Shown in pieces: positions 1,923 to 60,995 of a DNA stretch of 64,000 bases. Source of the stretch: Spirochaetia bacterium (GTDB lineage: Bacteria; Spirochaetota; Spirochaetia; SZUA-6; Bin103). The first letter of the stretch is position 1, and each line of letters opens with the position of its first letter. Location: the NCBI GenBank assembly GCA_965203055.1, contig OZ241863.1, positions 4,257,813 to 4,321,812 of the forward strand, written 5' to 3'. Made by a program: the position numbers and the translations under genes. Below the pieces are notes generated by a model. It was given only the letters and a program-made list of their open reading frames with translations, searched no databases and was not told the origin of the DNA.

Positions 1923-2169
1923 ATCGCCCGATGCGGGCGTGACGGCCGGGAGACCAAGCTCGAAAGACGATCGGCGAAAGGCGACGGTAGGGTCCGAGGA
2001 ACAGCGCCCGCGCGGGCGCGCCGCGCGCGGCCTCCCGCTTCGTCGCAGGAGCATGGAGAGGAGCGAAGGCCGGCTTGAAGACCGCGCTCAGAGATCGAAT
2101 CGCGACCGAGCGTCACCGAGCGGGTAAAGGTAGGTGATCCATCAAGGGCGGATCGAAGGACGGCGGACC

Positions 2170-2499
2170 GAAGGATGAAACCGACGGTCTCCTCTACGTC
2201 TTCGCGACGACGCGGGATTGCGTCAAACCGTGCAGCTGCGCCTACTGTTTCCTCGCATCAGAGCGCAGTCAGGAGCCTTCCTCGTTTCGGCGCACGATGG
2301 TAGGTTCGATTTCGAGTGCAAGGATAAGAATAGCCGGTACCGAGCGGACAAATATGACGTGCCTTACAACTACTACCGATTGACGGTGAAGGCCGAATGC
2401 AAGGAATCGATTCTGAAAGAACTGGAGTCTCTGAACATCTCGAGGGAGACTCTGTTCCCGGGGCTGGAATCATCCGCCAAGGCGATCGTCGATGCCTAG
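2170..2499 (+). pseudogene. FRG-domain protein gene fragment (retains the C-terminal part)
   Basis: LYVFATTRDCVKP is encoded at ~2192 in one frame. After an apparent ~340-bp deletion, ORF 2218..2499 ends ...YYRLTVKAECKESILKELESLNISRETLFPGLESSAKAIVDA, a typical FRG-family C-terminus. It is paralogous to 3985..4490. Confidence 0.5.
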
Positions 2500-2502
2500 T
2501 AA

Positions 2503-2826
2503 GCTCGGTCCGGCAGGTGCTGCGGCGGATCATCGGCTTGCTGCCACTTGCCGCGCCGGCTGCTGAGCAGAGATGACCGCCCTGTTCGGCGGCCGCCTTC
2601 GCCAACGCGCGCCGCGTCACTGCCGATCACCTGCAGATGATGGCGCCGTGCCGTCGTATGAAGCAGGATCACCACGCACGATCCTCTCAGCGGGCGCCTC
2701 GCCTCGTTGCCCCCGCACGGCCGCCGCAACCTGAAGGGGCATGGCGCGCCATCGACCTGACCGTCCGGCCCTGAGTCTTGCCCGGCCGCGCGCGCCGCGG
2801 TATGGTGAATGAGGAGGCACGGACCC
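2503..2826 (+). repeat. ~300-bp promoter-bearing repeat, copy 1
   Basis: Aligns along its length with 4485..4802 and 6277..6570. Indels break every reading frame between copies. Confidence 0.9.
2778..2806 (+). promoter_or_regulatory. Repeat-borne sigma70-like promoter, copy 1
   Basis: TTGCCC (2778..2783), a 17-nt spacer, then TATGGT (2801..2806). The module is identical in all four repeat copies. Confidence 0.5.
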
Positions 2827-2892
2827 CTTGGCAGCGCAGCACGACGCGGCATGATGCGCGTCCAGCCGTTCATCAGCACCGACTGATCAAAG

Positions 2893-2966
2893 CATCCTGC
2901 CCTTCTCGCACAGGTCCCGCGGCGGCGGTACTCTTGCCGCCAGTTCGCGCGTCACTGCCTTGCCTG
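2893..2966 (+). repeat. Upstream element, copy 2 (see 107..169)
   Basis: 37/40 identity of the core to 130..169. It ends 52 nt upstream of the Uma2 ATG at 3018. Confidence 0.75.
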
Positions 2967-3017
2967 TCGCGCCGCCGCGCCGCGTGCTATGCTGCGCAGC
3001 GTCTGGAGGCGTGGTCG

Positions 3018-3710
3018 ATGGCAAGTTCACTCAGCGCTCCGCTGGCGGCGCCGGTAGCGGTAGAATACCCCAGTTCCGACGGCAAGCCGATGGCTGAAAG
3101 CGATTCCCAACGGATACCTCTGACGTACGCCGTCGACCGGCTCCGGTACCACTTCCGCAACCACGCCGACGTGTACGCCTCCGGCAACCTGCTGATCTAC
3201 TACGAGAAGGGGAGTCCGGGCGCGAGGGTGGCGCCGGACGTGTTCGTGGTGTTCGGTGTCCCCAATGTCGAGCGCTCGTCGTACCGGCTGTGGGAGGAGG
3301 GGAAGGGACCCGACTTCGTGCTGGAGATCACGTCGCGGGCGACGTGGCGGGAAGATCAGACCAAGAAGCGGGAGTTGTATCGGCGGCTGGGGGTACGGGA
3401 GTACTGGCAGTACGATCCGACGCGGGACTACCTGAAGCCGCCGCTGCAGGGGTTGGAGTTGGTGGGGGAAGATTACGAGCGGCTGCCAAGCCGGGATTTG
3501 GCGGACGGCACCCTGGCGCTGCGGAGCGAAGTGCTGGGATTGGAGTTGCGTCTGGCCGGCCGGCGGCTGCGGTTCCACGATCCGCAGACCGGAGAGGACC
3601 TGCCGGACTTGGCGGAGACCGAAGACCGACGCCGTGAGGCGGAGGCTCGCGCGGAGGCGGCCGAAGCGCGCTTGGCCGAACTCGAGGCTCTTCAGCGACA
3701 ATCAAGATGA
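3018..3710 (+). CDS. Uma2 family endonuclease (DUF820)
   Basis: ATG at 3018 inside ORF 2778..3710. Shows YPSSDGKPMAESDSQ, ...APDVFVVFGV, ...PDFVLEITSRATWREDQTKKRELYRRLGVREYWQYDP (PD-(D/E)xK core) and a coiled-coil tail. The N-terminal ORF extension lies in the repeat and was rejected. Confidence 0.85.
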   Translation: MASSLSAPLAAPVAVEYPSSDGKPMAESDSQRIPLTYAVDRLRYHFRNHADVYASGNLLIYYEKGSPGARVAPDVFVVFGVPNVERSSYRLWEEGKGPDFVLEITSRATWREDQTKKRELYRRLGVREYWQYDPTRDYLKPPLQGLELVGEDYERLPSRDLADGTLALRSEVLGLELRLAGRRLRFHDPQTGEDLPDLAETEDRRREAEARAEAAEARLAELEALQRQSR

Positions 3711-3984
3711 GAATCCACTGCGAACGTCGACCGAACGCCACCGAGCGGGTGACGGTCAAGTGATCCATCAAGAGGGCCGCCCCGGAGTACGGTCACGATC
3801 ACCCCTCCGTAACCCCGCAGGCGGCATAGCTCACGCCACCCCGCATCGCCCAAGACAAGCCGCCATACGCCCCGGCCGATTTTAGTGTCCCGCAAGAGCG
3901 CAGGGAGGCATACATGAAGAAGCCGGAGTACCCGCGGGCGTGGCAGAGAGCCACTACCGCCGCCGAATGTCACACGCTTGAATC

Positions 3985-4490
3985 GCCCTCGATGTGGTCG
4001 GCCAGAAGGACGGCGAGATGTTTGACGTCGGCTTGTTCTTCGCTTGTAACGATTCGAAGCACGATTCGAAGAACGGTTGCCTCTACGTGTTCGCGACGAC
4101 GCGCGATCGCGTCAAACCCTACGACAGCGACGCCGTGAGCATCGTCGCCAACTTCGCTCGACTCCGTAGAAACGAACAAGAGGAGATTCTGACAGAAACG
4201 GAGCAGTTTCTGGACGAACGACGCGCCTTCGTCCGTTCTTCTCACGGCTACCGTATCATGCGCAGGAGCGATGTCAGAGGAGAAGTCGGTGTCTACTCCT
4301 GGCGCTGTCGTATGGATTCCCTGCGCCGGGAGATGGGCCGTCTCCATACCTTCATCAGGCAGGAAAAGCCATACTTCGTCGAGGGTCTGATCGATCCGAG
4401 AGACCTGTTCCGCATCTTCATCGTGCAGCCTCGCCGGCTGTTTCCTCGCCTCAGAGCGCCAATGCGCGCCGAAGAGAACGAGTGCGCTCG
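3985..4490 (+). pseudogene. FRG-domain protein gene fragment (retains the middle part)
   Basis: Encodes ...LDVVGQKDGEMFDVGLFFACND...CLYVFATTRDRVKPYDSDAVSIVANFARL..., then runs into the repeat without the FRG C-terminus. The N-terminus is missing. It shares flanks with 2170..2499. Confidence 0.45.
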
Positions 4491-4802
4491 GTCGGCAGGT
4501 GCTGCGGCTGATCGTCGGCCTAGTGCCACACCACCGCGCCGACTGCCGAGCAGAGCTGACCGCCTTGTTTCGGCGGCGGCCTTCGCCAACGCGCGCCGCG
4601 TCACTGCCGATCACCTGCATGGCGCCGTGCCGTCCGATGAAGCAGGACCACCACGCACGATCCTCTCAGCCGGCGCCTCGCCTCGTTGCCCCCGCACGGC
4701 CGCCGCAACGTGAAGGGCCATCGCGCGCCATCGACCTGACCGGCCCTGAGTCTTGCCCGGTCGCGCGCGCCGCGGTATGGTGAGTGAGGAGGCACGGACC
4801 CC
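4485..4802 (+). repeat. ~300-bp promoter-bearing repeat, copy 2
   Basis: Aligns with copies 1 and 4. It ends with the promoter module, GAGGAGG, and the ATG of the next gene. Confidence 0.9.
4753..4781 (+). promoter_or_regulatory. Repeat-borne sigma70-like promoter, copy 2
   Basis: TTGCCC, a 17-nt spacer, then TATGGT. The SD GAGGAGG is at 4786..4792 and the ATG at 4803. Confidence 0.55.
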
Positions 4803-5228
4803 ATGGCGCTCACCGATACTGACCTGCAAGTCGTGGTCGAGCATGTCAAGCGCATGCTGCCGGCCATGCTGATCGAGACCGCACCCCTCAGCCATCTTCA
4901 GGGTGACGCATCCGCAACAGCGCCCGGCAACTACGCCGAGGAGCACTTGGCGCGGTTCGAAGAACGCACGGCGCAGGAGTTCAAGGCCCTCCGCGAGTTG
5001 ATGCAAGCGGGCTTCGCGGCGGTGGACAAGCGTTTCGAGGACATGAACAAGCGTTTCGAGGACATGAACAAACGCTTCGAGGAGATGAACGCCAACATCG
5101 ACAAGCGCTTCGCGGCGGTGGACAAACGCTTCGAGGACATGAACAAACGCTTCACCGCGATCCAGTGGATGGGCACCGTGGCGTTCGTGGTCCTCGGCGT
5201 CATCATCTCGGTCGTCGGGCTCTCGTGA
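4803..5228 (+). CDS. Tail-anchored coiled-coil protein with NKRFEDM heptad repeats (P141)
   Basis: Strong SD and ATG. Has a ~75-aa N-terminal domain, then DKRFEDMNKRFEDMNKRFEEMNANIDKRFAAVDKRFEDMNKRF, then a C-terminal TM segment WMGTVAFVVLGVIISVVGLS. It is a paralogue of 6571..7092. Confidence 0.8.
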   Translation: MALTDTDLQVVVEHVKRMLPAMLIETAPLSHLQGDASATAPGNYAEEHLARFEERTAQEFKALRELMQAGFAAVDKRFEDMNKRFEDMNKRFEEMNANIDKRFAAVDKRFEDMNKRFTAIQWMGTVAFVVLGVIISVVGLS

Positions 5229-5497
5229 CCAGCACCTGAGCAGAGCTGACCGCCCTGTTTCGACGGCCGCGCCCGCCAACGCGCGCCGTGTCACTGCCGA
5301 TCACCTGCGGATCATGGCGCCGTGCCGTCAGACGAAGCAGGACCATCACAAGCACGATCCTCTCGGCCGGCGCCTCGCCTCGTTGCCCCCGCACGGCCGC
5401 CGCAACGTGAAGGGCCATCGCGCGCCATCGACCTGACCGACCGGCGACCGGCCGGCGCTTGAGCCTTGCCCGGTCGCGCGCGCCGCGGTATGGTGGC
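5225..5497 (+). repeat. ~300-bp promoter-bearing repeat, copy 3 (5'-truncated)
   Basis: Starts within the stop codon region of P141 (TGACCAGCACCTGAGCAGAGCTGACCGCC) and aligns with the 3' ~270 nt of the other copies. Confidence 0.85.
5466..5494 (+). promoter_or_regulatory. Repeat-borne sigma70-like promoter, copy 3
   Basis: TTGCCC (5466..5471), a 17-nt spacer, then TATGGT (5489..5494). Confidence 0.5.
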
Positions 5498-5655
5498 CGA
5501 GGCGCGGATAACCCATGGGCGGATCGGCCACCACCCTGCGGGTGTACGTCTGTTTCCAAGGCGATAGCCTGAAGGCTGGTCTCGTCACCGGGCATCGGCA
5601 GAGAGACGGTTGAACCGGCACCACCCAATACCAGCCGGCAACCGGGGGGCACACC

Positions 5656-6138
5656 ATGGCGGTAATCGACTGGGTAGCGGTAGGAACCCCCATAGTGGCG
5701 ATGGTGGGAATGTTCGGCATGATGCTGAAGGTCCTCGGTTCGCTGAACAAGAGGTTCGACGACATGAACAAGAGGTTCGACGACATGAACAATAGATTCG
5801 ACGACATAAACAGGAGATTCGACGACCTGAAGGACTCTCTGAACAAGAGGATCGATGATCTGGCCACCGGCTTGAACAAGAGGATCGACGATCTGGCCGC
5901 CAGCTTGAACAAGAGGATCGACGATCTGGCCGCCGAGGTGAAAGACATGCACCAAGAGGTCCGTTCGATAGACAAGCGGATGGTTCATCTTGAAGGAAGG
6001 ATGGACAGTCTGGAAGGGCGTCAGAGCAGGGAGCCGGGAGCGATGAGGCCGGTGCCGGTATCTGGTGTGGAGAGACCACTCACCCCACCGCCCCCTTGGC
6101 AGCAGGAGGAAGCGGAGACAGGCGCAGCAGCCCGGTAG
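5656..6138 (+). CDS. N-terminally anchored coiled-coil protein with NKRFDDM / NKRIDDL repeats (P160)
   Basis: N-terminal TM segment VAVGTPIVAMVGMFGMMLKVL, followed by NKRFDDMNKRFDDMNNRFDDINRRFDDL and three 11-residue units (xxxLNKRIDDL). It uses AGG/AGA Arg codons, unlike P141 and P173. Confidence 0.75.
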   Translation: MAVIDWVAVGTPIVAMVGMFGMMLKVLGSLNKRFDDMNKRFDDMNNRFDDINRRFDDLKDSLNKRIDDLATGLNKRIDDLAASLNKRIDDLAAEVKDMHQEVRSIDKRMVHLEGRMDSLEGRQSREPGAMRPVPVSGVERPLTPPPPWQQEEAETGAAAR

Positions 6139-6276
6139 TATCGCCTGCTGCTGGCGCACGTGGCGGAGCGCATGAACCGCAAGAAACGGGAAAGCACAAT
6201 TGCCCTGCCATCTCGCCGAACGGAACAAGAAAATCGGATCTACTGACGACTCCATGAAGTGACGTATTCCCCGTAA

Positions 6277-6570
6277 GTGCTGCGGCCGATCATCGACTTG
6301 CTGCCACGGCACCTCGTCGAGCTGACCGCCCTGTCGGCGGCCGGCGTTCGCCAACGCGCACCGCGTTCCTGGCGATCACCTGCAGATCATGGCGCCGTGC
6401 GTCGGATGAAGCAGGACCACCACGCACGATCCTCTCGGCCGGCGCCTCGCCTCGTTGCGCCCGCACGGCCGCCGCAACCTGAAGGGCATGGCGCGCCATC
6501 GACCTGACCGGCCCTGAGTCTTGCCCGGTCGCGCGCGCCGCGGTATGGTGAGTGAGGAGGCACGGACCCC
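6277..6570 (+). repeat. ~300-bp promoter-bearing repeat, copy 4
   Basis: Aligns with copies 1 and 2. Its 3' end is identical to copy 2 through the SD and ATG. Confidence 0.9.
6521..6549 (+). promoter_or_regulatory. Repeat-borne sigma70-like promoter, copy 4
   Basis: TTGCCC (6521..6526), a 17-nt spacer, then TATGGT (6544..6549). GAGGAGG follows, then the ATG at 6571. Confidence 0.55.
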
Positions 6571-7092
6571 ATGGCGCTCACCGATACTGACCTGCAAGTC
6601 GTGGTCGAGCATGTCAAGCGCATGCTGCCGGCCATGCTGATCGAGACCGCACCCCGCAGCCATCTTCAGGGTGACGCATCCGCAACAGCGCCCGGCAACT
6701 ACGCCGAGGAGCACTTGGCGCGGTTCGAAGAACGCACGGCGCAGGAGTTCAAGGCCCTCCGCGAGTTGATGCAAGCGGGCTTCGCGGCGGTGGACAAGCG
6801 TTTCGAGGACATGAACAAGCGTTTCGAGGACATGAACAAACGCTTCGAGGACATGAACAAACGCTTCGAGGAGATGAACGCCAACATCGACAAGCGCTTC
6901 GCGGCGGTGGACAAACGCTTCGAGGACATGAACAAACGCTTCGAGGAGATGAACGCCAACATCGACAAGCGCTTCGCGGCGGTGAACAAACGCTTCGAGG
7001 ACATGAACAAACGCTTCACCGCGATCCAGTGGATGGGCACCGTGGCGTTCGTGGTCCTCGGCGTCATCATCTCGGTCGTCGGGCTCTCGTGA
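6571..7092 (+). CDS. Tail-anchored coiled-coil protein with expanded NKRFEDM repeats (P173)
   Basis: The N-terminal 75 aa are nearly identical to P141 (PLSH vs PRSH). The repeat block is 32 aa longer and the C-terminal TM segment is the same. Confidence 0.8.
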   Translation: MALTDTDLQVVVEHVKRMLPAMLIETAPRSHLQGDASATAPGNYAEEHLARFEERTAQEFKALRELMQAGFAAVDKRFEDMNKRFEDMNKRFEDMNKRFEEMNANIDKRFAAVDKRFEDMNKRFEEMNANIDKRFAAVNKRFEDMNKRFTAIQWMGTVAFVVLGVIISVVGLS

Positions 7093-7135
7093 CCAGCACC
7101 CGAGCAGAGCTGACCGCCCTGTTTCGACGGCCGCG
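7090..7135 (+). repeat. Stub of the ~300-bp repeat (copy 5)
   Basis: TGACCAGCACCCGAGCAGAGCTGACCGCCCTGTTTCGACGGCCGCGCC matches the start of copy 3, after which similarity stops. Confidence 0.8.
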
Positions 7136-7217
7136 CCTGTCCGCCGGGTGAACCCGCTCGCCGCGGGAACGGCGCATACTTGACGGCGGCGGCGGAGCGG
7201 TCCAATCTGAAGCAGGC

Positions 7218-7784
7218 ATGAGTGAGCAACCCAACGTGACCGGTGAGACGCTGCGCGAAGCGCAGTTCGAGCGCGGCGTCGGCAGCTACGTCCGCTGGAT
7301 GGGGTCGGCCTTCCTGGCCGTCTCCGTCGTCGGCATCGTGTTCATTCCGATCTGGCTCCTGATCAGCCTGTGGTACGTGCCGGCCTACGTCCAGCGGCTG
7401 TCCGCCCGGCTGACCACGCACGCGTTGGAGGTCAAGAAGGGCGTACTCTTCCGCTCGGAGGCGACCATCCCGCTCAATCGAATCACCGACCTCCGCCTGT
7501 ACGACGGACCGCTCATGCGCGCCCTCAGGTTGCGCGGGCTGAAGGTGGAGACCGCCGGACAATCAAGCGAAAACTCCAGCGAGGGCAAGCTGGTCGGGGT
7601 GACCGCGGTGGTCGAGTTCCGCAATGCGGTCCTGCTCCAACGGCAGACATCGGTGGACGGCGAACAGCCCGCCGGCGCCCCCCGCCAGGTGGAGGGCGCT
7701 ACCGGCGCTGCCGACGCGACCGAGCTGCTGGCCGAGATCCGCGACATCCTGGCGCGCATGGAAAGGCAACGGGCGCGCTCGTAG
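7218..7784 (+). CDS. Bacterial PH domain (bPH_2, YdbS/YdbT-like) membrane protein
   Basis: Two N-terminal TM segments followed by ...LEVKKGVLFRSEATIPLNRITDLRLYDGPLMRALRLRGLKVETAG, the bPH_2 hallmark. Confidence 0.75.
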   Translation: MSEQPNVTGETLREAQFERGVGSYVRWMGSAFLAVSVVGIVFIPIWLLISLWYVPAYVQRLSARLTTHALEVKKGVLFRSEATIPLNRITDLRLYDGPLMRALRLRGLKVETAGQSSENSSEGKLVGVTAVVEFRNAVLLQRQTSVDGEQPAGAPRQVEGATGAADATELLAEIRDILARMERQRARS

Positions 7785-7817: not shown

Positions 7818-9431
7818 CTACAACATCCAGACGGCCACCGCGCGCCCATCCCGCCGGCGCTCGTCCGGCGCGGCCGCGCGCTCGCGTTCGACCGGGCGCC
7901 GGTCGCGCGGCCGCCGGTCGAACACCACCAGATGCCCCTCCGCGGCGCCGCACTGCGCCATGTAGCCCAGGGTCTGCTCGACGCCGCGCTCGACGGTAGC
8001 GGCGAGGGTCTGCCGGTCGGTGCCGCGCAGCACCTTGCACTCGATCACGTAACGCTCCCACAGGTCGGACGGCTGGCCCGGCTGCCGCGGCCACAGCACC
8101 AGCAGGTCGGTCCGGCCGCGGCCCAATCCGTATTCGCGCTCGATCCGGCCGCCGCCGTTCACGATGCGCTGCAGATACGCCTGCAGGATCAACTGCGGCG
8201 CCGCCTCGCGGTACTCCTCGAAGCGCCCCAGCCAGTGCCCTGCGTGCTCCCCGTAGAAGGTACGGAACGCCCGCAGCAGCTTCGCAAGGTCCAGCCGCCC
8301 GGCGCCGTCCACGTACCACGCCGCCTGCTGGTCCAGGCTGCTTTGCAGGACGTAGCCCAGTTCCCGCGGCACCACTTCCGCGTAGATCGGGTTGGCCACG
8401 CGCGGCGGGGCGCCGCCGTCGATCAGGCCCAGGTCACGGACGTAGTCGAGATCGCGCGCCTGGTAATGCGCCTCGCCGCCGCTCAGGAGCGGCTCCACGA
8501 CGCGCCGCACGCGCTCCTCCTCCAGCTTGTGCGCCAACTGGTCCAGATGCGTCCGGCGCGCCAGGATCAGCTCCTCGCGCGCGGCGTAGATGGCATCCTG
8601 ATCGATGGTGCGCGCGCGGTCGCGCCCCGCCTTGTTGTCGAAGCACGCCTCGGCGCACAGCGCGTTCACCAGCCACGGCTGGCCCCGGGTCTGGGTCCAG
8701 ACCGCGGCCAGCGCCGCCGGCGTGAAGCGCTGGCCGGTCTGCTCGGTGTGCTGCGCCAGCAGCGCGCGCGTCTGCGCCGCGGTGAAGTCGCCCAGGCGCA
8801 CCGACTTGGCGGCGATGTTGAACGGGCTGCCGCCGGCCACCGCCTCGCCGGCGCTGGAGCGGATGCGGTAGTCGCGCAGGTCGCGGACCCCGCTCAGCAC
8901 GATGCTCTGCGGGAAGCCTGCGGGACGTTGCTCGTAGCCGGCGCGGAGCTGGCGCAGCACCGACAACAGGGTGTCGCCCGCCAGCGAGTCGATCTCGTCC
9001 ACCAGCAGCACCAGCGGCGTGGGATCGGCCAGGCACCACTCGACCAGCAACTCCTGCAGCGCGGCGTCGGGGCCCGACTGCTCCAGGATGCCGGGCCAGA
9101 CGCGGCGCGGAACGTCGTCGCCCAACAGCCGGGCGCGCGAGGCCACGCTGCTGAGGATGGCGCGCATGGCGCGCGCGGTATCGTCGCGCGCTACCTGGCC
9201 GACCTCGACGTTGACGTCTACGCAGCGGTAGTTCCCGGCCGCGCCGCTGTTGAGCAGATCGCGCAGCGCGATCAGGGCCGACGTCTTGCCGGTCTGGCGC
9301 GGCGCGCGCAGCACGAAGTATTGCCCGGCGCGAATCATGTCCAGCAGTTCCTCGGCGTCCAACCGTTCCAGCGGCGGAATCGCGTAGTGGTCCTGCGGGC
9401 GCACGGGGCCGGCCGTGTTGAAGCGGCGCAT
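7818..9431 (-). CDS. AAA-ATPase_like / PD-(D/E)xK (PDDEXK_9-type) fusion protein
   Basis: N-terminal MRRFNTAGPVRPQDHYAIPPLER, Walker A APRQTGKTS and Walker B LLVDEID. The C-terminal GRGRTDLLVLWP...YVIECKV is nuclease-like. Confidence 0.8.
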   Translation of the reverse strand: MRRFNTAGPVRPQDHYAIPPLERLDAEELLDMIRAGQYFVLRAPRQTGKTSALIALRDLLNSGAAGNYRCVDVNVEVGQVARDDTARAMRAILSSVASRARLLGDDVPRRVWPGILEQSGPDAALQELLVEWCLADPTPLVLLVDEIDSLAGDTLLSVLRQLRAGYEQRPAGFPQSIVLSGVRDLRDYRIRSSAGEAVAGGSPFNIAAKSVRLGDFTAAQTRALLAQHTEQTGQRFTPAALAAVWTQTRGQPWLVNALCAEACFDNKAGRDRARTIDQDAIYAAREELILARRTHLDQLAHKLEEERVRRVVEPLLSGGEAHYQARDLDYVRDLGLIDGGAPPRVANPIYAEVVPRELGYVLQSSLDQQAAWYVDGAGRLDLAKLLRAFRTFYGEHAGHWLGRFEEYREAAPQLILQAYLQRIVNGGGRIEREYGLGRGRTDLLVLWPRQPGQPSDLWERYVIECKVLRGTDRQTLAATVERGVEQTLGYMAQCGAAEGHLVVFDRRPRDRRPVERERAAAPDERRRDGRAVAVWML

Positions 9432-10441: not shown

Positions 10442-11617
10442 TCAGGTGATGATGGCGCCCGCCCACAGCCGCTCCAGGAACTGTTCCCAGGGCAGGATCA
10501 GGATGCCGTCGGGCGTGCGGCGGGGAGCGTCGGCGGTGCAGACCACGGCGGCCAGAGCGGGCCGGTGCTCCTCCGCGTACGCGCGGAGGCCCCGGAGCTC
10601 GCGCGGCCCGGGGTTGGCGCCGCCCTTGACCTCGAGCGCGACTTCACCTTCGCCGAGCACGAAGTCGCATTCCAGGCCCGACTTGGTGCGCCAGAAGCGC
10701 ACCGGATAATCGCACTCCCGGTAGCTGCGGCAGGCAAGCAACTCCATGAGCACCAAGTGTTCCAGCGCGCGGCCGAAGTCGGGACCCGCAGCCCGTTCGA
10801 CCCGGCGCCCGGCCAGGTAACCGGCGACGCCGACGTCGAACAGGTAGAACTTCGGCGCCCGGTTGATGACCGCGCGCGTCCGGCGGCTGCGGAACGGCTC
10901 CAGGAAGACGCCGAGCAGGGTATCGACGAGAATCTGAAAGTATTCCCGCACGGTCTTGGAATCGACGCCGCAGTCGCGAGCCACGCTGCTGAAGTTGAGC
11001 AGCTCCCCGTGACAGAACGGCAGCGCGTCGAAGAACCGCGAGAACGCCGCCACGTTGCGCGTCAGCCCTTCGTCGAATACTTCCTCCTTGAGGTAGTCGT
11101 CGACGTAGCCGGAGAGCGCGCGCCGGTTCTGAGCCGCGTCGTAGTGTTGCGGGACCAGGCCGCGATTGAGCGCGCGCAGCAGGTCGAACGCCGGAATCTC
11201 CGGCCACGTCAGGGGATGCAGCCGGAAGCGCCAGGCGCGGCCGCCGAGCAGGTTGGCGCGCCCGCGCTTCAACTTGCGGGCGCTGGAGCCGCACAGCACG
11301 AAGCTCAGGCCGGCGTCTTCGATCAGACGATGCACCTCGTCGAGCAGGGGCGGCACTTTCTGCACCTCGTCGATGATGATCGGTTCGGCCCGGACCGCGG
11401 CGGAGAGAGCGCGCACGCGGTCGGCGAGGCTCCACGGCGCCCGCGTGAACTCCAGCAGCAACCGGGTATCGAGCAGGTCGAAGCGGGCGGAACGCGGGAA
11501 CAGGCGCCGCAGCAGGGTCGACTTGCCGGTCTTGCGCGGCCCCCACAGGAACGCCGACTGGCCGCGCGGCAGCGTCAGGTCGAGGGTGCGGCGGTATGGC
11601 GCCAATTCGTCACTCAT
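10442..11617 (-). CDS. AAA+ ATPase with DUF4143-type C-terminal domain
   Basis: ATG at 11617 (MSDELAPYRR). Walker A GPRKTGKST and Walker B IIIDEVQKVP. The C-terminal ECDFVLGEGEVALEVKG is restriction-endonuclease-like. Confidence 0.8.
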   Translation of the reverse strand: MSDELAPYRRTLDLTLPRGQSAFLWGPRKTGKSTLLRRLFPRSARFDLLDTRLLLEFTRAPWSLADRVRALSAAVRAEPIIIDEVQKVPPLLDEVHRLIEDAGLSFVLCGSSARKLKRGRANLLGGRAWRFRLHPLTWPEIPAFDLLRALNRGLVPQHYDAAQNRRALSGYVDDYLKEEVFDEGLTRNVAAFSRFFDALPFCHGELLNFSSVARDCGVDSKTVREYFQILVDTLLGVFLEPFRSRRTRAVINRAPKFYLFDVGVAGYLAGRRVERAAGPDFGRALEHLVLMELLACRSYRECDYPVRFWRTKSGLECDFVLGEGEVALEVKGGANPGPRELRGLRAYAEEHRPALAAVVCTADAPRRTPDGILILPWEQFLERLWAGAIIT

Positions 11618-11796
11618 TCCGAACAGGTCTGACTCATTCGGAATATATTCCGAACTGGACGGATCGTCGAGGGTCCCGGAATATAGGTCCCGGCGCGGAT
11701 GCGGCCTTCCCGCCACGCCGGCCTCACCGGCCTCATCCGGCAAGGTTGCCGCGCCCGACGGGTTTCATCTACGCTCGGCGCGATCCTGGAGGAACC

Positions 11797-14035: not shown

Positions 14036-14933
14036 TTGCCGCGCGACACGCACGAGGCGCCGTTGGAACCGGGCGGCGCCGCCCGGCGGGGCGCGCGCGG
14101 CCGGCAGCGGGAGGGCGCTTCCTTCCCGGCGCCGCCGGCCAAGGTCCGACTGCCGGCGAGCTATGCCGCCGCCGTCAGCGAGATCAAGCGGCGCATCGGC
14201 ACGCAGCGCCTGGGCGTGGTGCTGGCCGCAAACGAGGCGCTGGTGTTGTTGTACTGGGACGTTGGGCGGGCGATCCTGGAGCGGCAGCAGCGCTCGGGCT
14301 GGGGCGCCAGGATCATCGACCGCCTGTCCCACGACCTGCGCGCCGCCTTCCCGGAGATGCGCGGGCTGTCCGCCCGCAACCTGAAATACATGCGCGCCTT
14401 CGCCGCCGCGTGGCCCGACCGCTCAATTGTGCAACAGGCTGCTGCACAAATTCCGTGGTCCCACAACGTGATCCTGCTGAACAAGCTCAAGGACGCCCGC
14501 ACCCGTCTCTGGTACGCCCGCAAGGCGCGCGAGCAGGGCTGGAGCCGCAACGTGCTGGCCATGCAAATCGACGCGAGACTGCACGAGCGGGAGGGCATGG
14601 CGGTCACCAACTTCGCCGCCACCCTGCCGCCGGGCGACTCCGACCTGGCGGCGCAGGTGTTCAAGGACCCGTACCTGTTCGACTTCCTGGGCACCGCCGC
14701 CCCGCGCACCGAGCGGGAGATCGAACAGGCCCTGGTCGATCACCTGCAGTCGTTCCTGTTGGAACTGGGCGCGGGATTCGCGTTCGTCGGCCGCCAGGTC
14801 CTGCTGGAGGTGGGAGACCGCGACTACTACGCGGGAGACGCGCCTGGTGGACTCGCTGCCGCAGGAGCTGCGGGGCAGCCTGCCGACCATCGAAGAGATC
14901 GAAGCGGAGCTGAACGGCCCGGAACATGAATGA
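14036..14933 (+). pseudogene. YhcG-like (DUF1016) PD-(D/E)xK nuclease gene with internal deletion and frameshift
   Basis: The N-terminal and middle regions are intact (NEALVLLYWDVGRAI, LSARNLKYMRAF, ...FAFVGRQVLLEVGDRDYY). The nuclease core is then absent, and the usual C-terminus (ETRLVDSLPQELRGSLPTIEEIEAELN) continues in another frame to a stop at 14931..14933. Confidence 0.6.
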
Positions 14934-15402: not shown

Positions 15403-16975
15403 GGCGCATTTCCAAAATGTAGGTTAAGTTAAGCGTCAGGCCGCTTGGTGGCCAAGCCCAAATTCCTAGTGTGAAGATGACGTTTCTCGGCGATCTTGAA
15501 TCACCGGTCTACGCGTTCGGCAACGGGGCTGAACGGAACCGGCGCCTGGCGATCCTCGCCGGGGCGGCCGAATCCGGCGCCGACATGGCGGTAGCGGTGA
15601 TGGGCGGCGCACAGCAGCCTGAGATTGTTCGGCTCGGCGGCGCCGCCGCAGGCATACGGCACGACGTGATCGATCTGCAGCAGGTGTTGGGAGCCGCAGC
15701 GGCGCCCGCTGGTGCGGTCCACGTAGCGGCAGCGGCCCCGGTCGCGCCGCCAGACCTCGCGCTTGACCGCCGCCGGGATGGCGCGGCCGGTCACGCCGGT
15801 CTTCGCTGCCGAAGTCCGAGTCCGCGGCGGCGCAGCCGGCTGCGCGCACGCCGTCGCAGCCTGCCGGCCGAGGCGCCGCGTCTTCGGCGCCGAAGTTGCG
15901 TCGCACGCCGGCTTCGCTGCCGAAGTGTCCGGGCGGTCAGCGGCTTCGTCTCCCGGCTGCGCCGCCGCCTGAGCCGATACTTTCGCCGCCGAAGGAGCGG
16001 CGCTGTCCGCGCTGGCCTCCTGCTTCGCTGCCGAGGCAGCGAAGCGAGCCGAGGCCGGCTGCGTCTTCGGCGCCGAAGTTTGCTCGGCGCCTTTGGCCGG
16101 CGCGGCGCGCCGCCCGCTCGGCGGACGGGCCGGGTCGTGGCGGTCGAGCCCTTCCCGCACCAGCCGCGCCATGAGCTGCCCCAACGTCAGGTGCGGGTCG
16201 ACGTGGGACAGGAGGCCCTTGAGCCGCTCCAAGCCGCGCCGGCACTCATCGTCGATCACCGCCTTGAGTTCCCAGCGCCCGCCGCCCAGGGGCCGCACCC
16301 GATCCGCCGGCGCCGCCAGCTCCGGGTCCACCTCGGCCAGCATCTGCATCACCTCCCGGCTGCTCTTGCCGGACGCCTGCTCCACCAACTCCCGCCGCGC
16401 CTCCGAGTCCAGCACCGGCGCGGCCGCCGGCTTCCGCTCCGCCGGCCGCAGCGGCGCGGCGCCCTCCTGCGACTGAGCGGCAGCCCCGAACCCGGTCCCG
16501 CCCGGCGCGCTACGCGCCGCGCGCTCCTTCTTGCGCTCCTGCCGGTCGAACGCGTGCTGCAACTGCGCCGCCGCGTTCAGCGTCATCGAGCCATTCTGCA
16601 GGCGCTCGCGGACGCCGTCGACGTCCGCGCAGAGCCGCATCGCCTTGATGCGCCGCCACGCTGCGGCGTCGCTGTAACCCAGTTCGCGCACCGCGTAATC
16701 GAACAGACTCGAGAACCCGCGGCGCAAGTATAGGCGGCGCTTCTGGATCTCGCGCAGGTGGTCGATCACGACCACTTCGAGATGGTGTTCGATGCCGGAA
16801 AGTTCCTTGGTCCGCTCCAGCAGATGGTCGTCTGAGAGGGCGGATACGGTAGTGGTGACGGCCTCGTCGGAAGCATGTTGGTTCATGACATAAGTATAAT
16901 CATGGAAACTACTTGAGTCAATTTTTCGGGCCGGAATATGCCACCTGCCGGCGTGACTCGGCGGCGCATTTCCAA
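15403..16975 (-). mobile_element. HNH-endonuclease unit, copy 1, bounded by 13-bp direct repeats
   Basis: GGCGCATTTCCAA occurs at 15403..15415 and 16963..16975 (reverse complement of TTGGAAATGCGCC). Similarity to the second unit (59459..60995) starts and stops at these repeats. Confidence 0.65.
15501..16886 (-). CDS. HNH endonuclease (DUF222-like N-terminal region)
   Basis: ATG at 16886 (MNQHASDE). C-terminal HNH motif RCRYVDRTSGRRCGSQHLLQIDHVVPYACGG...NLRLLCAAHHRYRH. A low-complexity (T/A/P)SA(A/P)K linker is present. Confidence 0.85.
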   Translation of the reverse strand: MNQHASDEAVTTTVSALSDDHLLERTKELSGIEHHLEVVVIDHLREIQKRRLYLRRGFSSLFDYAVRELGYSDAAAWRRIKAMRLCADVDGVRERLQNGSMTLNAAAQLQHAFDRQERKKERAARSAPGGTGFGAAAQSQEGAAPLRPAERKPAAAPVLDSEARRELVEQASGKSSREVMQMLAEVDPELAAPADRVRPLGGGRWELKAVIDDECRRGLERLKGLLSHVDPHLTLGQLMARLVREGLDRHDPARPPSGRRAAPAKGAEQTSAPKTQPASARFAASAAKQEASADSAAPSAAKVSAQAAAQPGDEAADRPDTSAAKPACDATSAPKTRRLGRQAATACAQPAAPPRTRTSAAKTGVTGRAIPAAVKREVWRRDRGRCRYVDRTSGRRCGSQHLLQIDHVVPYACGGAAEPNNLRLLCAAHHRYRHVGAGFGRPGEDRQAPVPFSPVAERVDR

Positions 16976-16996
16976 GCGGTTTGACCAATGACTCCT

Positions 16997-17015
16997 TACT
17001 CTTATTTTAAGAGTA
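16997..17015. promoter_or_regulatory. AT-rich inverted repeat TACTCTTA-TTT-TAAGAGTA (candidate operator)
   Basis: Perfect 8-bp arms, 34 nt upstream of the ATG at 17049 of an operon that ends with a winged-helix regulator. It stands out in GC-rich DNA. Confidence 0.4.
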
Positions 17016-17048
17016 TACGGTATTCGAGAGCAATAGGAGGGTAGCGAG

Positions 17049-17621
17049 ATGACCAATACCGACAGTCTCCGGGAAGACATCGCGTACGTGCGGGCGGCGG
17101 CCGAACGGGCGGACACCGGCACCATCCCGTCAATCTGTCTGCTGTGGGCGGTGATCGGGCTCTGCGGGGGCGTACTGGCCGACTTCGCCGCCGACTCCCG
17201 CTGGGTGGGCCGGTTCTGGCTGGCGGCGGCGCCGGCCGGTACGTGCCTCTCCCTGTGGCTCGGCTTCCGCGCCGGCCGTCGGGACGGTCAAGCAAGTCGC
17301 CGCACCGGCGTGCGCTGGGGCCTGCACTGGTTGGCGTTCATGGCCGCCGGGGCGCTCGGCGCCGCCCTGGTGGCGGCGGGGCACCTGCAGTGGTCCGGGT
17401 TCGGCTCGCTCGTCGCGCTGTTCCTGGCCCTGAACTACGCCCACGCGGGCTTCTACCTGGACCGCCGGCTGCTGCCAGTCGCCGGCGTGCTCGGTACCTG
17501 CTATCTGGTGACGTTGTTCGTGCCGGGGTATCAGTGGACGCTGGCCGGCGTGCTCATGGCCGCGGCGCTCGTCTGGCAGGCGATCCTTGGTGCGCGCCAG
17601 CGCGATGCCCGCCGATCCTGA
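17049..17621 (+). CDS. Integral membrane protein, hypothetical
   Basis: SD GGAGGG lies upstream. About five hydrophobic segments. The 3' end overlaps the start of the regulator gene. Confidence 0.6.
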   Translation: MTNTDSLREDIAYVRAAAERADTGTIPSICLLWAVIGLCGGVLADFAADSRWVGRFWLAAAPAGTCLSLWLGFRAGRRDGQASRRTGVRWGLHWLAFMAAGALGAALVAAGHLQWSGFGSLVALFLALNYAHAGFYLDRRLLPVAGVLGTCYLVTLFVPGYQWTLAGVLMAAALVWQAILGARQRDARRS

Positions 17622-17928
17622 CATTCCGGGACTGGAGGAGCTGGCGGCGCTGAACGGGCTCCTGCAACATCGGGTTCGATTGGCGATTTGCGTTCTGCTT
17701 TCGAAGCACGACGCGATGTCGTTCAGCCGTCTGAAGCAGGTCCTCGAAGAGAAGGACGGCAGCCTCGGTACGCACCTGCGCAAGCTGGAAGACGCCGGTT
17801 ACCTGACGATTGACAAGACCTACCGCGACCGGCGGCCGGTGACTTGGTATCAGTTGACCGCCGCCGGCCAGCAGCGATTGGAGCGGCACATCGAAAATCT
17901 GATGCGTCTGATCGGGCGCGCCCGGTAA
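17605..17928 (+). CDS. Winged-helix transcriptional regulator (HTH_34/ArsR-like)
   Basis: HRVRLAICVLLSKHDAMSFSRLKQVLEEKDGSLGTHLRKLEDAGYLTIDKTYRDRRPVTWYQLTAAG. The ATG at 17605 was chosen within ORF 17587..17928. Confidence 0.7.
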   Translation: MPADPDIPGLEELAALNGLLQHRVRLAICVLLSKHDAMSFSRLKQVLEEKDGSLGTHLRKLEDAGYLTIDKTYRDRRPVTWYQLTAAGQQRLERHIENLMRLIGRAR

Positions 17929-59429: not shown

Positions 59430-59458
59430 GCCTGGGGCTAATGGACATGGCCAGCCGC

Positions 59459-60995
59459 TTGGAAATGCGCCGCCGAATCACGCCGGCAGGTGGCATCTTA
59501 CGGGCCGGAAGAACTTGACTCAAGTAGTTTCCATGATTATACTTATGTCATGGACAAACATGCTTCCGACGGGGCCGTCACCACTACCGTTTCCGCCCTC
59601 TCAGACGACCTCCTGCTGGAGCGGACCAAGGAACTGTCCGGCATCGAACACCATCTCGAAGTGGTCGTGATCGACCACCTGCGCGAGATTCAGAAGCGCC
59701 GCCTGTATCTGCGCCGCGGGTTCTCGAGCCTGTTCGATTACGCGGTGCGCGAACTGGGTTACAGCGACGCCGCAGCGTGGCGGCGCATCAAGGCGATGCG
59801 GCTCTGCGCGGACGTCGACGGCGTCCGCGAGCGCCTGCAGAATGGCATGATGACGCTGAACGCGGCCGCGCAGTTGCAGCATGCCTTCGACCGGCAGGAG
59901 CGCAAGAAGGAACGCGCGGCGCGTAGCGCGCCGGGCGGGGCCGGGACCGGGGCAGCCGCTGAGTCGCAGGACGGCGCGGCGCCGGCGCGGCCGGCGGAGC
60001 GGAAGCCGGCGGCGGCGCCGGTGCTGGACCCGGAGGCGCGGTGGGAGCTGGTGGAGCAGGCGTCCGGCAAGAGCAGCCGGGAGGTGATGCAGTTGCTGGC
60101 CGAGGTGGACCCGGAGCTGGCGGCGCCGGCGGATCGGGTGCGGCCCCTGGGCGGCGGGCGCTGGGAACTCAAGGCGGTGATCGACGATGAGTGCCGGCGG
60201 GGCTTGGAGCGGCTCCAGGGCCTCCTGTCCCACGTCGATCCGCACATGACGATGGGGCAGCTCATGGGGCGGTTGGTACGGGAAGGGCTCGACCGCCACG
60301 ACCCGGCCCGGCCGCCGCGCGGGCGGCGCGCCGCGCCGGCCAAAGGCGCCGAGCAAACTTCGGCGGCGAAGACGCAGGCGGCCTCGGCTCGCGGCGCTGC
60401 CTCGGCAGCGAAGCAGCAGGCGAGCTCGGACAGCGGCGCTCCTTCGGCGGCGAAGGTATCGACTCAGGCGCCGGCGCAGCCGGGAGACGAAGCCGCTGAC
60501 CGCCCGGACACTTCGGCAGCGAAGCCGGCGACCGACGCCACTTCGGCGCCGAAGACGCAGCGCCTCGGCCGGCCGGCTGCGGCGTGCGCGCAGCCGGCGG
60601 CGCCGCCGCGGACCCGGACTTCCGCAGCGAAGCCGGACGTGCCCGGCCGCGCCATCCCGGCGGCGGTCAAGCGCGAGGTGTGGCGGCGCGACCGGGGCCG
60701 CTGCCGCTACGTGGACCGCACCAGCGGGCGCCGTTGCCGCTCCCAACACCTGCTGCAGATCGATCACGTCGTGCCGTATGCCTGCGGCGGCACCGCCGAG
60801 CCGAACAATCTGCGCCTGCTGTGCGCCGCCCATCACCGCTACCGCCACGTCGGCGCCGGATTCGGGCGCCCCGGCGAGGATCGTCAGGCGCCGGTAGACC
60901 GGTGATCAAGATTCGCCGAGAAACGTCACCTTGCACTGGGACTTGGGCTTGGCCGCCAAGCGGCCTGACGCTTACCTACATTTTGGAAATGCGCC
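59459..60995 (+). mobile_element. HNH-endonuclease unit, copy 2, bounded by 13-bp direct repeats
   Basis: TTGGAAATGCGCC at 59459..59471 and 60983..60995. The leader, ORF and trailer align with 15403..16975 in inverted orientation. Confidence 0.65.
59550..60905 (+). CDS. HNH endonuclease (DUF222-like N-terminal region)
   Basis: ATG at 59550 (MDKHASDG). Roughly 90% identical by eye to the 15501..16886 product and has the same HNH motif. Confidence 0.85.
   Translation: MDKHASDGAVTTTVSALSDDLLLERTKELSGIEHHLEVVVIDHLREIQKRRLYLRRGFSSLFDYAVRELGYSDAAAWRRIKAMRLCADVDGVRERLQNGMMTLNAAAQLQHAFDRQERKKERAARSAPGGAGTGAAAESQDGAAPARPAERKPAAAPVLDPEARWELVEQASGKSSREVMQLLAEVDPELAAPADRVRPLGGGRWELKAVIDDECRRGLERLQGLLSHVDPHMTMGQLMGRLVREGLDRHDPARPPRGRRAAPAKGAEQTSAAKTQAASARGAASAAKQQASSDSGAPSAAKVSTQAPAQPGDEAADRPDTSAAKPATDATSAPKTQRLGRPAAACAQPAAPPRTRTSAAKPDVPGRAIPAAVKREVWRRDRGRCRYVDRTSGRRCRSQHLLQIDHVVPYACGGTAEPNNLRLLCAAHHRYRHVGAGFGRPGEDRQAPVDR

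Follow-up and report, generated by a model that had tools for sequence, protein, structure and literature searches.

Layout of the array

Near the left end of a 64,000-nt stretch of spirochaetal DNA (Spirochaetia bacterium, contig OZ241863.1, positions 4,257,813 to 4,321,812; hereafter the window), a repeat of about 300 nt alternates with short genes, several of which are paralogs of one another. An earlier reading made from the sequence alone (the sequence-only reading) had taken this repeat for a novel scaffold element that carries its own promoter and Shine-Dalgarno and drives a series of unrelated gene cassettes. The array region (2100-7140) is an island of 59-66% G+C at the left end of a window of ~70% G+C, and it holds the following features.

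2147 to 2499, + strand: FRG-domain gene remnant, 5'-truncated and lacking 322 bp of internal sequence; 3 nt separate its stop from repeat copy 1
2503 to 2830, + strand: repeat copy 1, full length; promoter module 2778-2806, GAGGAGG 2811-2817; the expected family gene is deleted
2828 to 3017, + strand: conserved 190-bp 5' flank belonging to the Uma2 gene rather than to the repeat; recurs in loci L005 and L003 (introduced below)
3018 to 3710, + strand: Uma2-family putative nuclease gene (Pfam PF05685, 2.6e-16; PADLOC PDC-S03)
3994 to 4470, + strand: second decayed FRG homolog, lacking the N- and C-termini
4485 to 4802, + strand: repeat copy 2, full length; module 4753-4781, GAGGAGG 4786-4792; abuts the P141 ATG
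4803 to 5228, + strand: P141, a MALTDTDLQ-type family gene (open reading frame (ORF), homologs, family alignment)
5229 to 5517, + strand: repeat copy 3, P160-type subtype; module 5466-5494, diagnostic 16-18-nt insertion
5518 to 5655, + strand: leader between repeat copy 3 and P160, conserved at 134-138 nt across P160-type genes
5656 to 6138, + strand: P160, a MAVIDW-type gene (ORF, tandem repeats)
6277 to 6570, + strand: repeat copy 4, full length; module 6521-6549, GAGGAGG 6554-6560; abuts the P173 ATG
6571 to 7092, + strand: P173, a paralog of P141 (ORF, tandem repeats, AlphaFold model)
7089 to 7137, + strand: stub, the first ~49 nt of a P160-type repeat, 98% identical to 5225-5273

An nhmmer model of the four long copies placed them at 2517-2830 (E = 2e-100), 4499-4805, 5215-5517, and 6277-6573, all on the + strand, while BLAST pushed the starts of copies 1 and 2 out to 2503 and 4485; the same model found no further copy on either strand of the 64 kb. 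A weak match at 7077-7216 contained genuine similarity only at 7089-7137, the stub that forms the right end of the tandem array. The count of four long copies and a stub, and their positions, thus stand as originally described. The window copies are 84-92% identical pairwise. The module TTGCCC-N17-TATGGT, said to end each long copy, occurs exactly four times in the window, where 0.11 occurrences would be expected by chance and none of 100 shuffled sequences reached four. GAGGAGG follows it in copies 1, 2, and 4 and, as had been reported, is itself followed in copies 2 and 4 by an ATG, 10 nt further on, at the start of P141 or P173; the Shine-Dalgarno of copy 3 is degenerate. Copy 3 (which begins at model position 17) and the stub both start immediately past the stop codon of the family gene before them, which is what tandem units would show. 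The larger duplications that had been noticed around the repeats are also real and include the two decayed FRG genes: 4553-5153 is 93% identical to 6319-6942, and one larger duplicated segment consists of the second FRG homolog together with copy 2.

P141 and P173 are near-identical paralogs that differ by one 21-bp and one 75-bp unit, both extra in P173. They share a conserved N-terminus (MALTDTDLQVVVEHVKRMLPAMLIETAP...), KRFEDMN heptads encoded by 21-bp (7-aa) repeats, and a hydrophobic C-terminal transmembrane tail. In its AlphaFold model, P173 consists of a helix at residues 6-23, an unconfident linker, and a continuous helix at 45-172, in which the heptads have a per-residue confidence (pLDDT) >90. 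P160 begins instead with an N-terminal hydrophobic/transmembrane segment, followed by 21-bp and 33-bp repeats (NKRFDDM / LNKRIDDLAxx), and resembles P173 in the heptad region only (BLASTP 3e-19, 36% identity over 87 aa). The two types, predicted to have opposite membrane topologies (C- versus N-terminal anchor) and carrying matching KRF(E/D)DMN heptads, are interleaved in both islands; it is our speculation that they could form hetero-oligomeric coiled coils.

The MALTDTDLQ-type genes make up a real and constrained protein family. Their products range from 109 to 191 aa across loci, up to six or seven intact family paralogs occupy a ~20-kb stretch, several of the named homologs come from Spirochaetaceae metagenome-assembled genomes (MAGs), and the G+C content at third codon positions in P141 (0.86) is in line with that of host genes. 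A 32-codon "short ORF" at 5514-5612, which the sequence-only reading had placed under the control of copy 3, was discarded as a gene: across nine homologous leaders aligned, four lack the ATG and 1-3-nt indels disrupt the frame, so that ATG or frame is lost in six.

The repeat across related islands

Exact-protein look-ups and a homolog search yielded seven loci for comparison: L001, a near-identical contig; L003, a strain variant of the window locus; L005/L007, the homologous island of a relative's genome; L008 and L009, a second island of the same metagenome in two strain variants; and L010 and L006, from more distant genomes, in which the family proteins show 64-67% identity. The contigs derive from ENA metagenome assemblies. 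The acetyl-CoA synthetase encoded at L008 shares a 90% cluster with a protein of a "Spirochaetaceae bacterium" MAG, other named hits being Poribacteria at 74-77%; this is a tentative hint of a Spirochaetota-like, host-associated or marine origin. Across the window, L003, L005, L008, and L009, 25 repeat copies retain the promoter module. Fourteen of these run precisely up to the start codon of a MALTDTDLQ-type gene (offset 0), and nine end 134-138 nt before a MAVIDW (P160-type) gene. This survey of what lies downstream, proposed along with the sequence-only reading, therefore places 23 of 25 copies at a fixed offset before a family gene, all co-oriented with it. The proposal that each repeat drives the gene to its right survives in part: a promoter-like module is present and always points rightward, but what follows is one of two related, paralogous gene types rather than a set of unrelated cassettes.

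The two ends of the repeat behave differently. Its 3' end is constant, while the 5' ends are ragged and fall at model positions 1, 14-18, 36-41, 106-109, 141-142, 213, and 242. The full-length copies in L005 open with GATCGTCGATGCCTGGTAA, which corresponds to the last codons (~17 nt) of the FRG gene preceding copy 1 in the window. Together, the ragged 5' ends and the FRG codons at the start of the repeat indicate a duplicated chromosomal segment rather than an element with ends of its own. A second regularity is that the P160-type flanks share a 16-18-nt insertion and a different 3' end and are 97-98% alike, but 84% identical to the other subtype; because repeat subtype tracks gene type in this way, flank and gene have been inherited together.

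A predicted promoter at the constant end

As the sequence-only reading had predicted, a sigma-70-type promoter that is credible and a Shine-Dalgarno lie at the 3' end of the repeat. In every promoter-bearing copy compared within the lineage of the window the hexamers are invariant, while positions in the spacer vary. In L010 and L006, nhmmer found no long repeat at E <0.1, and homology is confined to the proximal ~60 nt ahead of the ATG, which read TTGTCT-17-TACCGT, GGGAGGCACGGAT, ATG. Three lineages thus keep the core TTGyCy / TAysGT and the 17-nt spacing over a diverged spacer sequence. From this pattern, which makes a good phylogenetic footprint, we infer a sigma-70-type promoter followed by a short leader and a strong Shine-Dalgarno, and the array thereby yields a well-footprinted native predicted promoter and Shine-Dalgarno for an organism of 70% G+C.

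Copy 1 and the Uma2 gene

Copy 1 had been read as the driver of the Uma2 gene, a design that the related loci do not bear out. The Uma2 gene has its separate 190-bp flank, which recurs 95-96% identical before both Uma2 genes of L005 (14864-15053 and 17126-17316) and is found in L003 as well. L005 has a repeat, a 178-aa family gene, a recurrent 3' module, and the Uma2 flank in succession before Uma2; in L003 a truncated copy 1 is followed by a 44-codon, internally deleted remnant of the family gene and then by the Uma2 flank; and in the window the last bases of the repeat (…ACGGACCCC) are joined straight to that flank (TTGGCAGC…). Because L003 and L005 retain the family gene or its remnant before the Uma2 flank, we interpret copy 1 as a deletion scar from which the intervening gene has been lost. 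Its promoter may now read into Uma2, but as an accident of decay and not by design.

Each Uma2 gene is preceded by a MALTDTDLQ-type gene or remnant (L005 13827-15833 and 16699-18072, L003 2045-3752, window 2503-3710), and these are in various states of preservation, from intact (178 aa) through remnants of 76 and 44 aa to the complete deletion seen in the window. This suggests that repeat, family gene, and Uma2 form an older duplication unit in which the family gene tends to decay. A 40-nt motif, GGTACTC-TGCCGCCAGTTCGCGCGTCACT.CC.TGCCTG, lies upstream of both the AAA_21 ATPase gene (130-169) and Uma2 (2927-2966) in the window, the two 92% identical, and again before both L005 Uma2 genes; it may be either a shared regulatory site or a duplicated scrap of flank.

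Rearrangement between strains

Comparison of strain variants for gain and loss of units, which had likewise been proposed, revealed polymorphism at several scales and points to ongoing rearrangement. L009 has one tandem unit of 1.27 kb (repeat plus P160-type gene) more than L008. L003 possesses an intact 348-aa FRG gene (PADLOC PDC-S15, 3.6e-70) where the window has the 2147-2499 remnant, which aligns to L003 1350-1434 and 1757-2027; the second FRG homolog of the window is 56% identical to residues 117-271 of the L003 protein (E 4e-46). Heptad number differs between alleles of the same locus (130 versus 137, 123 versus 116, and 160 versus 153 aa), and gene order differs between the window and L005 despite nearly identical AAA_21 ATPase proteins. 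The idea of recombination-driven shuffling thus holds insofar as strains differ by whole units and the flanks offer themselves to homologous recombination, but the shuffling of a discrete cassette element is not supported.

Several other intergenic modules recur across the related islands. One of ~90 nt lies directly 3' of MALTDTDLQ-type genes in L005 (at 3372, 4750, 5834, 10485, 14691, and 16951) and occurs in the window at 1925-2040, after the 197-aa gene 1329-1922; this conserved 3' flank showed no intrinsic terminator. A short intergenic module (…CGACCGAGCGTCACCGAGCGGGTAAAGGT.AGTGATCCATCAAG…) stands upstream of both FRG copies in the window (2096-2150 and 3721-3772) and is present in L003 (2472-2562) and elsewhere in the related islands, which are a patchwork of such modules.

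Origin of the repeat-gene pattern

The most probable account, in which we have considerable confidence, is that membrane-anchored coiled-coil genes of a lineage-specific family carry the repeat as their promoter-bearing 5' flank, and that it was amplified with them by ordinary homologous recombination, presumably of the RecA type. The functional part would be the 3'-terminal ~60-70 nt, comprising the -35 (TTGCCC), a 17-nt spacer, and the -10 (TATGGT), followed by a 5' untranslated region (UTR) of ~20 nt with a strong Shine-Dalgarno and then by the MALTDTDLQ start codon; the product would be a small protein with a single long helix of heptad repeats and, at the C-terminus, a membrane anchor. 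The P160-like genes, with their N-terminal anchor, would be served by a repeat subtype by way of an added leader of ~135 nt. The ~230 nt upstream of the -35 would be non-coding passenger DNA that originally lay between an FRG gene and a family gene and was copied alongside the gene by segmental duplication. Unequal crossing-over and deletion between copies would then have added, removed, and truncated units, leaving the repeat-gene-repeat-gene appearance, and such gain, loss, and truncation would be expected to continue because flanks of ~85-98% identity stand in direct orientation and the genes themselves hold 21-, 33-, and 75-bp repeats.

Several points weigh against this account. Two of the 25 copies (window copy 1 and L008 660-965) have no family gene directly downstream, and beyond the five loci of the count copies may lie beside unrelated genes elsewhere in the genome. 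The module matches 8 of 12 positions of the E. coli consensus, which is below the threshold of a generic promoter scan, and the activity of the promoter is predicted from consensus and conservation. Lastly, the 84-92% identity of the ~230-nt upstream part could reflect recent duplication or gene conversion (neutral) or selection for a regulator platform.

The last of these alternatives supposes that the ~230 nt upstream of the -35 form a regulatory platform through which one regulator co-regulates all members of the family, selection then explaining the conservation. The upstream part is indeed about as conserved between unit types (84%) as the promoter, while the coding regions are weakly alike; some similarity extends in L010 to about -100 (GTGAAGG, CTGAC, GGCC-CTGAG); and several copies have a near-palindrome, ATGGCGCGCCAT, ~45 nt upstream of the -35. 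Half of the copies, however, carry this palindrome in imperfect form, no regulator gene is linked to the array, and the distant relatives do without the distal part. Moreover, L005 and L008 contain functional-looking paralogs with only 60-165 nt of the repeat (141-306, 213-307, and 242-306), from which it follows that the distal part is dispensable for a gene with a promoter. We regard a platform of this kind as unlikely.

Comparably doubtful, in our estimation, is an extension of the co-amplification account in which the two gene types constitute a contingency-like diversification system, recombination varying the number, stalk length, and pairing of membrane-anchored coiled-coil proteins in the population. 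The promoter-bearing flanks and the in-frame 21-, 33-, and 75-bp repeats would be the substrates of frequent recombination. If true, an uncultured and possibly host-associated bacterium would have in this array a chromosomal counterpart to the variation of bdr in Borrelia or of vsp in Mycoplasma.

The discrete element favored by the sequence-only reading, carrying a promoter, spreading by itself, and capturing or driving unrelated genes, is very improbable. It would be in keeping with copies that each bear a predicted promoter and Shine-Dalgarno pointing at the next gene, with the unrelated Uma2 gene that copy 1 now faces, and with an island that is a mosaic of recurrent modules and whose strains differ by whole units. 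Such an element would not, however, be expected to precede the same two related gene types at fixed offsets in 23 of 25 cases, to co-vary in subtype with the gene that follows, or to carry a scrap of FRG coding sequence at the 5' end of some copies; and the only unrelated gene it faces in the window, Uma2, owns its flank and was brought up to copy 1 by a deletion, as L003 and L005 attest. By the standards applied to insertion sequences (ISs) and miniature inverted-repeat transposable elements (MITEs), the repeat has no terminal inverted repeats, no flanking target-site duplications, and no defined ends, the 5' boundary being ragged. From 1.6 kb upstream of the window start to ~17000, Pfam annotation of L001 and L003 includes no integrase or other recombinase, and the earlier statement that an integrase is absent holds over that span; the copies also show no attC-like symmetry, as had been stated. 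The repeat had no blastn match in plasmid or phage collections, and its promoter-module pattern had none in JGI metagenomes or IMG/VR; among GTDB species representatives, a 22-nt core of the repeat, a pattern too strict for L005-type variants, gave one chance match, in the trpE gene of a Phycisphaeraceae MAG. Nor did we find scattered copies lacking an orientation bias, or correspondence to a known IS end, either of which would have marked the repeat as a generic dispersed sequence.

Slightly less probable again is an origin of the distal repeat in a gene that has decayed or in the terminus of an IS. Weak three-base GC periodicity (0.61/0.75/0.76), a 94-codon open frame in one copy, a putative transposase N-terminal remnant (113-aa ORF, L005 3728-4069) just upstream of two short copies, and the IS21, ISL3, and IS256 genes in related islands could all be taken that way. 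Open antisense frames of ~100 codons are nevertheless expected at 71% G+C, and those present sit in different registers in different copies. Among ten long copies 95% of indels have a length not divisible by 3, no frame persists from copy to copy, and none of the six frames has a Pfam match, bearing out the earlier view that the repeat is non-coding; inverted terminal repeats and plasmid or phage matches, as stated, are lacking too.

Least probable of these readings is a repeat transcribed as a structured cis-regulatory RNA (a leader or riboswitch-like element) or as a small RNA. Local complementarity (GCAGGTG/CACCTGC) is present in copies 1 and 2, and use of the predicted promoter would give P160-type genes a 5' UTR of ~160 nt. 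That complementarity, which had been called conserved, is nevertheless lost from copy 4 by an uncompensated mutation of the 5' arm and is absent from copy 3, and AGGATC-N9-GATCCT is perfect in copy 1 only. The promoter, moreover, sits at the 3' end, leaving most of the repeat upstream of the likely start. There was no Rfam match (at the gathering score, or at E up to 1), and folding energy was no better than that of shuffled sequences on either strand (z +1.39 and +0.75). The suggested covariation check lent no support to an RNA structure, 1 of 85 pairs being compensatory and the RNAalifold covariation term positive (+6.4), in copies that at 84-98% identity are too similar for a strong test; the P160 leader likewise had a fold z of +1.26 and 0 of 42 compensatory pairs. 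Finally, Dam-type phase variation through clustered GATC sites was rejected, as GATC occurs 6.8 times per kb window-wide and 3-4 sites fall within 5-16% of 200-nt intervals.

With the co-amplified flank as the preferred explanation, the feature, although real, is of an ordinary kind: an array of paralogous genes whose regulatory flank was duplicated with them. The gene family itself is undescribed and fast-evolving. The layout that tempts one to see a cassette system arose here from ordinary duplication of a gene along with the sequence upstream. Although no new mechanistic question is opened, the array usefully illustrates how variable islands of uncultured bacteria are built up and worn down by homologous recombination between flanks.

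Genomic neighborhood

Three further genes adjoin the array.

239 to 1375: AAA_21 ATPase gene (PADLOC candidate HEC-01A, 1e-23)
1329 to 1922: 197-aa partner gene, overlapping the AAA_21 ATPase gene
7218 to 7784: bPH_2 protein gene

The surroundings (239-1922, 7818-9431, and 10442-11743) resemble a defense island in their candidate systems, which comprise the AAA_21 ATPase and its partner, the FRG (PDC-S15) and Uma2 (PDC-S03) genes, an AAA_35/PDDEXK_9 protein, and a DUF4143 ATPase (PDC-S01, 5e-49). Under the diversification reading above, the repeated occurrence of the family genes together with Uma2 and FRG genes would hint at a part played in this defense-island setting.

Elsewhere in the window, a repeat of ~1.5-2.2 kb occurs twice, at 15406-17670 and, inverted, at 59453-60992, both copies being 93-96% identical to one stretch of L001. 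Each encodes a 471-495-aa protein with a C-terminal HNH endonuclease domain, and ahead of the left copy stands a truncated YhcG/DUF1016 nuclease gene (297 aa, 14036-14929) that is 368 aa in L003. This second repeat looks like a polymorphic insertion of a selfish HNH element.

Comparison with known systems

The array shares general traits with several described arrangements of repeated sequence. Repetitive extragenic palindromic (REP) sequences, bacterial interspersed mosaic elements (BIMEs), and MITEs are short (30-150 nt) or have terminal inverted repeats, and they are often palindromic and dispersed in either orientation. The repeat is, like them, non-coding, multi-copy, and intergenic; unlike them, it is 300 nt long and not palindromic, always points the same way as the genes of one family, and clusters in islands. 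An integron cassette has no promoter of its own, terminates in an attC site made of imperfect inverted repeats, and depends on the integrase IntI. Integron cassette arrays resemble the present one in their co-oriented genes, the recurrent non-coding sequence between them, and their strain-variable content. In contrast, the recurrent sequence here lies 5' of the gene, carries a predicted promoter, and has no inverted-repeat symmetry within or flanking its copies, and no recombinase that could be an IntI was annotated in the span surveyed above, the rest of the window having been partly scanned.

Gene amplification arrays are closer in form. Like these, the locus has units in direct orientation, a partial unit (the stub) at its edge, strain-polymorphic copy number, and boundaries that cut neighbors arbitrarily, as in the FRG 3' scrap and in the repeat that begins right after the previous gene's stop. 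Unlike simple amplification arrays, it is old enough to contain two diverged unit types and many decayed units, with Uma2, FRG, and AAA_21 ATPase genes interleaved.

The nearest parallels are families of variable genes. The vsp/vlp variable surface protein genes of Mycoplasma form a multigene family with a conserved promoter-bearing 5' region and in-frame tandem repeats. In Borrelia, bdr genes have their own promoter and encode proteins associated with the inner membrane (PMC10016077); bdrT contains ~9 versus ~6 repeats in orthologs that are otherwise 99.4% identical, and bdr paralogs have been reassorted through homologous recombination (PMC3303823). For protein architecture, Bdr is the closest, with a conserved N-terminus, central variable repeats, and a C-terminal membrane anchor, but the likeness is one of form only. 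A tblastn search of PLSDB (including Borrelia plasmids, seven among the hit records) gave no bdr-annotated match at E up to 0.01; P160 matched no plasmid in it, and P173 matched, in the heptad region, unnamed proteins of the reptile-associated Borrelia sp. RT1S/RT5S (E 3e-6, 32% identity). No Bdr model was among the matches of the Pfam or NCBIfam scans, and we rejected membership in the Bdr family, the similarity being at the level of the coiled coil only.

The best plasmid match of P173, an unnamed 190-aa protein encoded on plasmid lp23 of Borrelia sp. RT1S (L011 2333-2905), is 32% identical in the repeats only and is laid out like the family, with an N-terminal domain, RF.AV(D/N).(R/Q)(F/I) heptad-like repeats, and a C-terminal membrane tail; its gene adjoins a replication/maintenance gene.

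In contrast to bdr and vsp, no phase-variation switch such as a homopolymer tract or an invertible promoter is visible in the array, and, unlike bdr, which is carried on prophage plasmids, the genes are chromosomal and lie in a defense-island-like context. What the array has in common with both bdr and vsp/vlp is a set of clustered paralogs in variable regions, each with its own (here predicted) promoter, sharing a flank and an N-terminus, differing among paralogs and strains in the number of short in-frame repeats, and encoding predicted membrane-associated products.

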